A stretch of DNA of 64,000 bases from Elusimicrobiota bacterium (GTDB lineage: Bacteria; Elusimicrobiota; Elusimicrobia; UBA1565): the NCBI GenBank assembly GCA_043827405.1, contig JBDRPD010000050.1, positions 1-64,000 on the forward strand, read 5' to 3'. The translations under genes and the position numbers were made by a program. Of this stretch, positions 3,237-55,367 are shown piece after piece. How positions within the stretch are numbered: the stretch's first letter is position 1; every line of letters starts with the position of its first letter. The notes beneath the pieces are model-generated. The model was given only the letters and a program-made list of their open reading frames with translations. It did no database searches and was not told the origin of the DNA.

Positions 3237-4481
3237 ATGAAGGAGATTATCTGCTTGGGCTTATTGCTTTCGGCGCCCGCGGCTGGCAACGCGGCGAGAC
3301 CCGTTCCCCAGTTCGAACTCCAGATTAAGCCGATAAATCTAGAGGAACCCCGTTTTGTAGTCAGCGGCTCCATCCAGTATTGCGCCGATACCGGGGAAAA
3401 AGTCTTCTTCTATGTTCCCAAGGGGTCAGCCTTCAACTTCACGCGAAATGGCGCGGCGATCGACGTTGCCTCTAAAAAGGGGGTTGATTGGCCGTGTGAT
3501 AGAAGTGATCCCGAAAGCGCTCCCATTACTTTCGAGGGGACTTCCCCCACGATTACTGGAAAATGCGGCGCGTCCCACCAAGAGATTTATTGCCGCAATA
3601 ACAGTATCCCCAATCCGGAAGTCTTAGCCCCCTGGAGTCGGTACCGAATCCAGTTTGACTTGCCCGAGGGCTATGATGCTCTCTCCCCCGATCCTTCGAT
3701 TCAACTAAACAACGGCATCGAATTTCAGATCGCCGAATTTAGCCCTCCTCAATTTCGTGAGACAGAGCGGATGATGTTCGAATATAGGTTTCCAAAGGGT
3801 TTTTCCCCCGAAAAAAAATACCTGGACTTCATTGAAGCAACGCTGGAACGCTACCTCGACAGGTTCGGCGCTTTGCCTTTCCAAAAGCTAAAGGTGGGAG
3901 CTATCCGGCGCGGTGAGGACACTGGGGAGATCAGCGGTAGTCCTGCGGGAAACTTGATCCTTTTTTCGAGGTCGACTTTTGCGGGCAATACTAGCGGGGC
4001 TAATCTTGGGAGTATCGGGATCCATCGTGATGCTTCCGACGCCTTGAGAAAACTGGTGATCGCCCATGAGCTTTCGCACTTTTGGTTTGGAACCAACTTC
4101 ACAGGCAAGGACGGGTGGATGGTTGAAGGCATCCCTAACTACCTCGGATTGGTCGCCGTTGGGAAAGACTCGGCGGAAGACTACGCCGACATACGCAAGT
4201 ATTTCAAATACATGGCCGCCCAGGGACCGAAGGACGCCATCGCCGACCAACCCTTCGGAGGCGGACCCCTTTACTTTAAGGCCTATTTTCAAGGACCCCT
4301 GGCTCTGGCTGAACTCGGCGAAGTGGTCGGGCACGACGAGATCGTCGAGCTGATCACCGGGGTTTATCAAAAAAATAACAATCCGTCGTTTGTTGATTTC
4401 GATCGCGCCTTTAAGCAAGTGTTCCCCTCACAATCGGCTCTTTGGGATCGCTCTTGGAGAATTACGGCTTCGCCCCAGTAG
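3237..4481 (+). CDS. cassette 4: secreted M1/gluzincin-like metallopeptidase
   Basis: Signal peptide; IAHELSHFWFG...WMVEGIPNY and a downstream Y..G motif. Confidence 0.75.
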   Translation: MKEIICLGLLLSAPAAGNAARPVPQFELQIKPINLEEPRFVVSGSIQYCADTGEKVFFYVPKGSAFNFTRNGAAIDVASKKGVDWPCDRSDPESAPITFEGTSPTITGKCGASHQEIYCRNNSIPNPEVLAPWSRYRIQFDLPEGYDALSPDPSIQLNNGIEFQIAEFSPPQFRETERMMFEYRFPKGFSPEKKYLDFIEATLERYLDRFGALPFQKLKVGAIRRGEDTGEISGSPAGNLILFSRSTFAGNTSGANLGSIGIHRDASDALRKLVIAHELSHFWFGTNFTGKDGWMVEGIPNYLGLVAVGKDSAEDYADIRKYFKYMAAQGPKDAIADQPFGGGPLYFKAYFQGPLALAELGEVVGHDEIVELITGVYQKNNNPSFVDFDRAFKQVFPSQSALWDRSWRITASPQ

Positions 4482-50530: not shown

Positions 50531-50632
50531 GGAAGGGTGCCATCCGCCGCAGGCGGATAGTGCCGCTCCTTAAGGATTACTGGAAGGGTGCAATCCGCCG
50601 CCGGCGGATAGTGCCGCTCCTCGGAAATTATA
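50531..50632 (+). repeat. two tandem 51-bp hairpin units, each starting with the first 10 nt of tRNA-Ser
   Basis: GGAAGGGTGC at 50531, 50582 and 50633; ATCCGCC-N3-GGCGGAT hairpin in each unit. Confidence 0.9.
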
Positions 50633-50719
50633 GGAAGGGTGCGTGAGCGGTTGAAACGAACACTCTCGAAAAGTGTCAGACAGGAAACTGTCTCGTGGGT
50701 TCGAATCCCACCCCTTCCG
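50633..50719 (+). tRNA. tRNA-Ser(CGA), CCA not encoded
   Basis: Acceptor GGAAGGG/CCCTTCC, anticodon arm ACACT-CTCGAAA-AGTGT, long variable arm, GTGGG-TTCGAAT-CCCAC. Confidence 0.96.
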
Positions 50720-54351: not shown

Positions 54352-54882
54352 TCAGAGCCGCACTTCTTCCAGCAGCGAGGAGATATGCTTCTCCTGTTCG
54401 GCGAGGCCGCGCTCGAGCTTCTTTCCCGGGCGCTGGCGCTCGTCACAGGCGGGCCACAGCTCGATTTCTTCCTGGCGGAAGTGCCGGTGTAGGCGCTCGC
54501 TGAGACTGGCGAGCGTGCCCTTCAGATAAGAGTAATTCCCCTCATCAAGGTTTTCGAGCACAAAGCGCAGGGCGTCCTGCAGGTCTTCGCGATCCTGGCG
54601 TCCGCGCTCGATCGCGCGGCGCGAAGCCCCGTCCCGGCTTCGCCGGGACTGCGCGCCTGGATTCCGCCTGGAGGCGCGGCCGTGCTTTCGCTTGTCGCCC
54701 CGGGGAGCGAACACCAGGCGCTCGACTTCTTCATGGCGGGTCAGCGACTGCTGAAAGGCGCGGAGGATTGTCTCGACGTGGGAGCAGGCCCGCGGGGAAT
54801 CATCGGCGAACTGCTGCTCCAGGAGCTCCAGCATCTCCTGAAAAAGCTCATGCTCTTTCTTGAGATGATCAAGAACCGTCAT
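54352..54882 (-). CDS. hemerythrin/HHE domain protein
   Basis: LKKEH, HEEVE..VF, HFRQEE..LWP. Confidence 0.7.
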   Translation of the reverse strand: MTVLDHLKKEHELFQEMLELLEQQFADDSPRACSHVETILRAFQQSLTRHEEVERLVFAPRGDKRKHGRASRRNPGAQSRRSRDGASRRAIERGRQDREDLQDALRFVLENLDEGNYSYLKGTLASLSERLHRHFRQEEIELWPACDERQRPGKKLERGLAEQEKHISSLLEEVRL

Positions 54883-55030
54883 GAGAATATTATAGGTGAT
54901 ACAACGACCCCTTGAGCAATGACATTGATCATCCTCAACGCGGCAAATCAAACTTTCGGCTTGACTCCGCTCCTCTACAGTTCTCTCGCTGCGGAGTATC
55001 CTGTGGTTAGAAATTTTGGAGGTGAATGAC

Positions 55031-55294
55031 ATGATCGAAATCCTAATGATGCTTACCCTGAGCGCGGCGAACCCGCAGCCCATAATGACCGCCCAGTTTC
55101 AGCCGTGCGTGTGGCCCAACCCCTGCGGTCAGCAGGAAGAGACGGTTGAGCTGGCTTCCGACTACGAAATCTGCGTCTGGCCGAGGAAGTGCGGCGGCAA
55201 GGCAAAGGAGACGGTCGAAGTGGCGCAGTTTCAGCCCTGCGTGATGCCCAACCCGTGCAGCGTGCAGGGGAAAGAGCCGGAGACTTTGGTCTAA
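55031..55294 (+). CDS. secreted multi-core Cys-rich peptide precursor
   Basis: GGAGGTGA SD; three 22-aa units with CV(W/M)PxxC; own terminator. Confidence 0.75.
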   Translation: MIEILMMLTLSAANPQPIMTAQFQPCVWPNPCGQQEETVELASDYEICVWPRKCGGKAKETVEVAQFQPCVMPNPCSVQGKEPETLV

Positions 55295-55314
55295 CAGCCG
55301 CCGGCTCCGCAGCG

Positions 55315-55341
55315 AACCCCCGCATCCGCGGGGGTTTTTTA
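55315..55341 (+). terminator. rho-independent terminator
   Basis: AACCCCCGC-ATCC-GCGGGGG-TTTTTT. Confidence 0.88.
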
Positions 55342-55367
55342 TTGCCTGCGCAGGCGTTAAGGATACC

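Follow-up and report, generated by a model that had tools for sequence, protein, structure and literature searches.

The stretch of DNA analysed here (the window, 64,000 nucleotides of an Elusimicrobiota contig) carries P0001, a gene for a precursor with three cysteine-pair cores that belongs to a family of repeat peptides, likely exported and, as judged from their promoters, likely switched on at low oxygen by an FNR-like regulator. The family comprises at least 240 sequences, each with one to five copies of the core A|QFQPCVWPNxC, and is undescribed in the literature searched, in which subscription journals were sparsely covered. The gene and its promoter comprise the following features.

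54912 to 54925, plus strand: FNR-type box 1, degenerate, TTGAGCAATGACAT, at offset -49 from the proximal box, an offset that recurs in 20-22 of 75 family promoters
54925 to 54938, plus strand: FNR-type box 2, TTGATCATCCTCAA, a perfect TTGA-N6-TCAA in the sequence, with a one-base overlap with box 1
54938 to 54951, plus strand: FNR-type box 3, 3' half only, ACGCGGCAAATCAA, at offset -23, where TCAA occurs in 69 of 75 family promoters
54961 to 54974, plus strand: FNR-type box nearest the gene (proximal box), TTGACTCCGCTCCT, in class II position and 36 bases 5' of the -10 element
54997 to 55002, plus strand: -10 element TATCCT, with the transcription start placed near 55009 by inference from the 24 of 75 family genes that have an ATG 6 bases past the -10
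55018 to 55024, plus strand: Shine-Dalgarno sequence GGAGGTG, read in the sequence
55031 to 55294, plus strand: three-core precursor gene P0001 (87 aa), supported by the open reading frame, codon use and relatives
55031 to 55093, plus strand: predicted Sec signal peptide, residues 1-21, short and with no basic n-region, predicted cut A21|Q22, based on the canonical signal peptides of relatives and on a helix at 3-13 in the model
55094 to 55126, plus strand: core 1, QFQPCVWPNPC, from the sequence
55157 to 55192, plus strand: core 2, SDYEICVWPRKC, from the sequence, a second core type present in 19 of 242 proteins
55226 to 55258, plus strand: core 3, QFQPCVMPNPC, from the sequence, in which Met replaces Trp
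55314 to 55342, plus strand: intrinsic terminator, a 10-pair hairpin at 55314-55337 followed by a T tail

The codons of P0001 have a GC content of 0.82 at the third position against 0.42 at the second, and the cysteines fall at residues 26, 32, 48, 54, 70 and 76, in three units with a period of 22 residues. Three silent differences and one W-to-M replacement separate core 3 from core 1, the spacers read GQQEETVELA and GGKAKETVEVA, and the C-terminus is ETLV. The 87-residue frame, the periodicity, the strong Shine-Dalgarno sequence, the dedicated terminator, the ETVE(L/V)A spacers and the ETLV end had all been given in a preliminary description of the locus and were confirmed in the sequence. 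Terminators like that of P0001 lie behind 57 of 78 family genes, compared with 0.17 in shuffles, and P0001 itself forms a one-gene unit of four FNR-type boxes, -10 element, Shine-Dalgarno sequence, open reading frame and terminator. The flanking genes are those named earlier, encoding a hemerythrin HHE protein (PF01814), an EamA transporter (PF00892) and a C93 peptidase (PF06035), but none of them recurs beside relatives of P0001 in 50 loci, so that the conserved neighbourhood anticipated for homologues does not extend to these genes. The divergent hemerythrin-domain gene (54352-54882, minus strand) is probably leaderless, because a perfect TATAAT (54894-54889) lies just 5' of its likely ATG at 54882, and a weak overlapping box at 54919-54932 could tie it to the regulator of P0001. 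Elsewhere in the window, a 51-base unit is repeated 2.2 times in the intergenic sequence at 50531-50642.

P0001 had no match in Pfam, NCBIfam or PHROGs, in keeping with the earlier statement that it belongs to no named family. The ESM Atlas gave no usable feature match for P0001 or P0032, and its structure matches rest on a model with a pLDDT of 0.23. AlphaFold2, applied to P0001 with 47 sequences, returned a pTM of 0.14 and helix 3-13 as the only structural element; a folded cysteine-rich repeat domain, such as a disulfide-directed hairpin, is thus not predicted, nor is the known folded repeat domain that the preliminary description had weighed against its own proposal. The existence of one-core as well as three-core members would argue for pairing of the cysteines inside one core and not in an interleaved manner. 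Two scorpion peptides retrieved by a PDB sequence search (E 0.012-0.017) were considered chance matches arising from the cysteine spacing, and a Type IV pilin-like reading of the MIEL N-terminus was rejected on account of the many members without the Glu and of the shortness of the hydrophobic stretch.

A search with P0001 recovered 130 relatives among 134 candidates, and a profile built from 47 chosen three-core sequences retrieved 244 representatives at E <=0.001, 150 of them among the matches listed. Removal of P0190 (an unrelated repeat) and P0121 (an apparent run-on gene call) from the 244 pooled identifiers left a set of 242 proteins, of which 76 have two cores, 135 have three, 30 have four and one has five; genes with one core are the host C81 paralog, L101, L103 and the phage-borne L104. 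The stand-alone multi-core precursor that had been proposed, with homologues differing in core number, is thereby borne out. P0121, which ends in a normal precursor, was also the one match in a search for longer fused forms; as 7993 candidates were scored in it, the rejection of fused forms is a weak one. Taken together, 657 cores give the consensus A|Q-F-Q-P-C-V-W-P-N-x-C (V 81%, W 87%, N 75%), in which the Cys and Pro positions were imposed by the pattern used for the search. Conservation sets in abruptly at the Ala (1.7 bits of entropy, compared with 2.8-3.4 at the positions immediately before it) and extends as far as the second Cys, and the non-Cys core positions (Q, F, P, V, W, N) have entropies of 0.8-1.8 bits against more than 3 in the spacers. 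In 647 of 657 cores the Pro between the two cysteines is preceded by W, Y, F, M or L, and in 625 by an aromatic residue (W, Y or F), while Met, Leu or Ala takes the aromatic position in 26; Met does so in core 3 of P0001. The distance from core to core is variable, mostly 16 to 23 residues, and 233 of the 242 members have an even number of cysteines. The sequence ETVE(L/V)A, previously read as a recognition sequence, occurs in 3 of the 242 proteins and is therefore not one, the conserved element being the Ala before each core. The cores are near-identical across genera, distinct core types recur across genera, and the family as a whole combines strong conservation at the protein level with free third codon positions.

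The family was detected in 41 of the 61 genomes of the host's order and in none of 144 other Elusimicrobiota genomes. This order is probably UBA1565, an assignment based on one of the carriers, NORP122, which is named in PMC7449369. The 47 loci taken from species-level genomes bear the label Elusimicrobia in 44 cases, 'bacterium' in two and Ca. Endomicrobium in one, the last label being probably wrong because the gene order is the same. Genomes contain one to four family genes in the loci read. The host has three copies, and the window copy groups with the C33 paralog (97/93 support), which makes it a likely recent duplicate that moved with its promoter. The host also encodes an orphan secreted protein of 176 residues (L003:6936-7466, G000:C62), with a canonical signal peptide and a mature N-terminus that opens with one family-like motif; no homologue of similar length was found for it. 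In L010 and L023-L026, arrays of three paralogous peptide genes lie behind fnr, each gene with boxes and a terminator and two of them leaderless. Two phage contigs carry a family gene: that of L104 (3262-3375) has one core, boxes and a canonical signal peptide and lies beside transposase and terminase genes, and that of L105 (7881-8171) has three cores and lies among DNA replication genes. A metagenome scan with P0001 gave three short loci, in none of which the arrangement of the window was established.

The four boxes at 54912-54974 and the -10 element at 54997-55002, which point to control by an FNR-type regulator and are the most telling feature of the locus, had been missed by the preliminary description. 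A perfect TTGA-N6-TCAA was found within 200 bases upstream of 70 of 79 distinct family genes, and a version with at most one mismatch upstream of all 79, compared with 0.26 and 4.7, respectively, in dinucleotide shuffles, the 79 genes being related and hence not independent in these counts. In 74 of 75 promoters, 36 or 37 bases separate the start of the last box from the -10 element, and the other boxes are placed at offsets of -23, -36/-37 and -49 from the last box; the window promoter has all four. As 24 of 75 genes have their ATG 6 bases after the -10 element, the box centre lies at -41.5 or -42.5 from the leaderless start, and -41.5 is given as the class II position of FNR in PMC3688515. 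The bare palindrome is not over-represented in the host genome, where it occurs 41 times compared with 78 and 75 at spacings of 5 and 8 bases. Two groups of family genes carry further motifs in their 3' untranslated regions, both absent behind P0001: CACCACC, found behind 11 of 79 family genes and 5 of 3380 host genes (for example in L002, L012, L014, L018, L020, L031, L101 and L103), and GCCGACCTCGAACCGG in the second group.

The candidate for the regulator is a single-copy CRP/FNR protein present in 54 of the 61 genomes of the order and in 40 of the 41 carriers. A peptide gene follows it within 3 kb in 34 of 41 carriers, and within 250 bases in 30; the window's own copy is not directly behind the regulator gene. 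Four cysteines of this protein (C11, C14, C20 and C63) show no variation in any of the 35 carrier and 14 non-carrier sequences, and FNR structures align with it from profile position 9-10, over the cysteine cluster, whereas most CRP structures do so from about position 41. Because it scores 71.8 bits, below the 228-bit NCBIfam Fnr cut-off, and because the host has six CRP/FNR-type proteins, we infer both its oxygen sensing and its pairing with the boxes; the host protein G000:C81 would be the one that binds them, the choice among the six following from linkage. No box was found in the first 1.6 kb behind the regulator gene in 14 regulator-positive, peptide-negative genomes (778 bases only at one locus). 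In G008 (L100, G008:C31) the full three-box promoter, -10 element, Shine-Dalgarno-like sequence and terminator are kept directly behind fnr with no open reading frame between them; the peptide gene would have been deleted there, or the locus would encode a short non-coding RNA.

Among the 479 open reading frames of 50 family loci, the neighbours that recur are the regulator (21 loci), a TPR protein (20 loci) and, as recognised by N-terminal sequence, nucleoside-salvage and transketolase genes. The TPR protein begins with a sequence resembling a signal peptide and gave no HTH match; its gene is present in 36 of 41 carriers and 8 of 20 non-carriers and is syntenic with fnr. An OPT transporter gene adjoins the peptide gene in 5 genomes of family f1 and is found in 54 of the 61 genomes overall. 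OPT, TPR, COX1 and PFOR (pyruvate:ferredoxin oxidoreductase) were all rejected as partners, since none tracks the peptide cleanly.

A promoter matrix trained on 73 promoters, with the host's copies left out, gave 11 matches above 17 bits in the host genome, in which P0001 ranked 3rd, its paralogs 5th and 7th, sulP (divergent from aprB) 4th and dsrA 6th. Ranks 1 and 2 belong to genes for secreted proteins without a Pfam family (L082:3004-3837 in G000:C91 and L083:2657-3217 in G000:C23), which have the same multi-box promoter. Single perfect boxes were located upstream of hcp and PFOR in the host, so that boxes of this type are common to the family genes, dsrAB, hcp and PFOR. A second genome has 11 perfect boxes, two of them at the peptide gene and others at genes for a succinate dehydrogenase/fumarate reductase cytochrome, a 2-oxoacid oxidoreductase and PEP carboxykinase. 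Members of the heme-copper oxidase family occur in 37 of 41 carriers and PFOR in 30 of 41, and the carriers are likely facultative organisms that switch between oxygen respiration and oxygen-sensitive metabolism, judging from these gene contents. The host itself encodes DsrA, DsrB and AprB above the NCBIfam cut-offs, together with qmo- and dsrMKJOP-like genes (G000:C105:36135-52762 and 82708-85069; L122, L123), and a heme-copper oxidase family subunit (C25:42223); it is likely a facultative Elusimicrobiota bacterium with dissimilatory sulfur metabolism. Two other host loci with perfect boxes were observed. In one, a perfect box and class II promoter head a run of cupin, hemerythrin, CsoR-like repressor and CopA genes (L127:540-4243, G000:C83), an FNR-type box ahead of copA being present in 1 of 14 CopA loci examined; in the other, a radical-SAM gene run (L081:1030-8239, G000:C101), a perfect TTGA-N6-TCAA at 3573 lies between two genes, and no link of this run to the peptide family was found.

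The product is likely exported and cut at A21|Q22, a prediction for which the textbook signal peptides of relatives provide the support. The hydrophobic run in the N-terminus of P0001 is short, and Lys and Arg are missing there, as in 202 of 210 members; taken alone, this N-terminus is therefore a weak signal peptide. A crude rule picked out 259 signal-like N-termini in the host, 46 of which likewise contain no basic residue. In contrast, P0173, P0189, P0202 and the phage-borne L104 have textbook signal peptides that end exactly at A|Q. The secreted nature of the precursor, as first described, is thus supported by its relatives, although the signal peptide of P0001 itself is atypical in its n-region. 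The mature product of L104 would be a free 13-mer, which points to one core as the working unit. The Ala is kept at 70% of internal sites (n=439) and at 76% of first sites (n=242), and this retention suggests a putative second cut at the internal Ala; the residue before it changes from Thr at the first site to Val at internal sites. No conserved C-terminal site was found in the family, and spacer trimming by a dipeptidyl-peptidase was rejected, there being no clear alternating Ala/Pro pattern.

Proteins expected to take part in maturation do not accompany the family. The earlier observation that no modifying enzyme is adjacent to P0001 can be extended to the 479 open reading frames of the 50 loci, among which none recurs, and the cyanobactin-like or other RiPP pathway suggested at first is not upheld; MNIO enzymes were detected in 12 of the 41 carriers, in 8 of the 20 non-carriers and not in the host. 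A pyroglutamate cap had also been suggested, and no bacterial-type glutaminyl cyclase (PF05096) was found in the 98%-complete host genome. As for enzymatic disulfide loops, DsbB occurs in 6 and VKOR in 7 of the 61 genomes, and neither was found in 29 of 41 carriers, including the host. These four proteins were rejected as obligatory partners by co-occurrence or because they were not found in the host, and with none of them found there, RiPP chemistry, pyroglutamate formation and enzymatic disulfides are unsupported. The even-cysteine test for exported proteins, described in PMC2823432, was applied with a crude signal-peptide rule and no positive control: the even fraction was 0.45 for exported-like host proteins (183 Cys-containing of 307), 0.40 after exclusion of lipoproteins (143 Cys-containing of 237) and 0.47 for cytoplasmic-like proteins. 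Since neither DsbB nor VKOR was found in the host and its exported-like proteins show no even-cysteine bias, the cysteine pairs would arrive in the envelope as thiols, and disulfide loops formed by air oxidation are possible but not assured.

These observations lead to a tentative proposal, preferred over the alternatives below though less likely than not, that the peptide is induced at low oxygen, exported by Sec without enzymatic modification, and serves in the cell envelope as a bulk dithiol buffer, binding Cu(I) or taking up oxidants. Under anoxia, the single-copy four-cysteine FNR-like protein G000:C81 would bind the boxes and activate transcription from -41.5, and the same regulator would activate dsrAB, aprB/sulP, hcp and PFOR alongside the peptide gene. 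Signal peptidase would cut the precursor at A21|Q22, and a general envelope protease may, with less assurance, cut after the Ala of the further cores to yield units of 21-23 residues with one cysteine pair each. Once the pairs have reached the envelope as thiols, the C-V-W-P-N-x-C turn could hold one soft metal ion between two thiolates, or form a disulfide when oxygen returns, and the dose would be raised by repeat expansion, gene duplication and multiple operator sites. The proposal draws on the universal cores, on dose amplification at every level, on cysteine pairs in an envelope that otherwise avoids Cys, on hosts that alternate between respiring oxygen and oxygen-sensitive metabolism, and on the higher toxicity of Cu(I) without oxygen. 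Both faster formation of Cu(I) in the periplasm and its greater toxicity under anoxia are described in PMC10304878, and bufferins, Sec-exported Cys peptides that buffer copper, offer a precedent (PMC11626156). Against the buffer, the non-Cys core residues are more conserved than a plain chelator needs, and the mature peptides, 10.7% Cys, contain 0.5% His and 0.3% Met. By analogy with CusF, Trp and Met could act as copper ligands. No copper gene recurs beside the family in the 50 loci, and the presence of an FNR-type promoter ahead of csoR-copA in only one of the 14 CopA loci also speaks against a copper buffer. The thiol state is made less certain by the three DsbA-like proteins of the host and by the distribution of DsbB and VKOR, one or other of which occurs in 13 genomes, 12 of them carriers.

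A secreted peptide signal, in which the exported precursor is cut after Ala and free Cys-loop cores are sensed as a report of local anoxia or cell density, is somewhat unlikely but has several features in its favour. The close succession of regulator and peptide genes resembles a pheromone layout, intragenic and whole-gene duplications recall those described for Phr and NprX in PMC5199041, the N-terminal boundary at Ala is sharp and kept internally, and the one-core phage copy would release a free 13-mer. Candidate receptors would be the exported TPR protein upstream of fnr, favoured by its excess in carriers, a sensor kinase, or uptake through the OPT transporter that adjoins the gene in family f1. 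Nevertheless, most genomes of the order contain OPT, the TPR gene keeps its synteny with fnr, both counts are confounded by kinship and genome size, and no cytoplasmic HTH-TPR receptor recurs in the 50 loci. The four cysteines of the regulator are unchanged in 14 genomes without the peptide and the protein heads an anaerobic-metabolism regulon, so that it needs no peptide. Moreover, the cores are largely common to genera instead of being kin-specific, and a peptide of 1.3-2.5 kDa would have no obvious route through the outer membrane. A variant that we regard as speculative and improbable would be a redox pheromone of a diderm lineage, in which reduced dithiol peptides are exported under the control of the oxygen-sensing FNR-like regulator, the thiol-disulfide state is the message, an envelope receptor reads it and phages copy it to steer their hosts at oxic-anoxic boundaries.

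In a further reading, which we consider unlikely, the peptide would bind or inhibit a conserved protein of the envelope, such as an exported serine protease, or would block a phage receptor or an envelope machine under anoxia. To a protease it would present a non-cleavable, substrate-like loop with an aromatic residue or Met/Leu followed by Pro. Chymotrypsin-type S1 pockets favour W, Y, F, M and L, the residues found before Pro in nearly all cores, but aromatic-Pro pairs are also accounted for by a cis-Pro turn. The recurrence of distinct core types across genera, the several S8-like and one HtrA-like protease identified by motif in the host, and the carriage of the gene by two phages are consistent with an inhibitor. 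On the other hand, no target gene is linked in the 50 loci, and a constrained loop needs a disulfide, for which most carriers have no known enzyme.

Modification in trans before Sec export, through a radical-SAM cyclophane on W-P-x or MNIO heterocycles at Cys, would make the product a true RiPP, which is distinctly improbable. The W-P-R/N/K repeats resemble the three WPR repeats of WprA (PMC12957482), bufferins are modified before Sec export according to PMC11626156, and anoxic expression would suit a radical-SAM enzyme; yet no enzyme recurs in the loci, MNIO is distributed among carriers and non-carriers alike, the aromatic residue is replaced by Met, Leu or Ala in some cores, the phage copies have no enzyme in the loci read and there is no leader besides the signal peptide. 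That the transcript acts also or mainly as an FNR-controlled small RNA is very improbable, for although G008 keeps the whole promoter and terminator without an open reading frame and CACCACC is enriched behind family genes, that genome may have undergone a recent deletion, the motif is missing from P0001 and most members, and the protein sequence is strongly conserved while third codon positions vary freely.

Respiratory and fermentative enzymes are the familiar targets of FNR, and here a tiny exported Cys-pair peptide ranks among the most strongly marked targets across an order. It does so without maturation enzymes, multiplied by repeats and gene copies and acquired by phages. The analysis also provides a usable FNR-type motif and a first regulon for uncultured Elusimicrobiota, coupled in one of them to dissimilatory sulfur genes. 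As a core of 11-13 residues can be synthesized chemically, copper binding, redox potential, protease inhibition and signalling can be tested without culture of the host.

Compared with known systems, the family fails membership in cyanobactins, RRNPP systems, triceptides and bufferins. Cyanobactins have multi-core precursors in which conserved recognition sequences flank hypervariable cores, clustered with PatA/PatG proteases and a heterocyclase. The family shares with them several cores per precursor, but it has a constant core with variable spacers and no conserved recognition sequences, the reverse arrangement, and PatA, PatG and PatD are found neither among the recurring neighbours of the 50 loci nor in the window. 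Like Rap-Phr, NprR-NprX and AimR-AimP, it comprises a small precursor behind a regulator, likely exported and cut after a small residue, with duplicated cores and genes and phage-borne copies; the adjacent regulator is of the CRP/FNR type, in contrast to a cytoplasmic TPR receptor, and persists without the peptide, in a phylum that we take to be diderm and with cores shared across genera in place of kin-specific ones. WprAB triceptides (PMC12957482) also have three repeats with W-P-x and an aromatic residue at triad position 1, and differ from the present family in that its loci contain no radical-SAM cyclophane synthase, chaperone or S9 protease, and its precursors have invariant flanking cysteines and a signal peptide. 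The control elements resemble those of class II promoters of Escherichia coli FNR, with TTGA(T/C)-N4-(A/G)TCAA boxes and the proximal one at -41.5 (PMC3688515). The regulator shares with FNR an N-terminal CxxCx5C cluster, a CRP-type HTH and co-regulated anaerobic enzymes, whereas the promoters here have three or four boxes, of which the upper ones overlap with a period of 13-14 bases, and the top-scoring targets are exported peptides and proteins. The fourth cysteine of the host regulator is at position 63, unlike Cys122 of E. coli FNR. Bufferins (PMC11626156) are small Cys-containing precursors with a Sec signal peptide, thiooxazole-dependent copper binding and a proposed role as bulk copper buffer in the envelope, and are distinguished by an MNIO/DUF2063 pair, a folded 4-Cys peptide and SigF control. 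The present family has no MNIO among its recurring neighbours, repeated 11-residue cores, an FNR-type promoter and no sequence match to them, and if it acts as a dithiol buffer, it would work most like an unmodified bufferin under FNR control.
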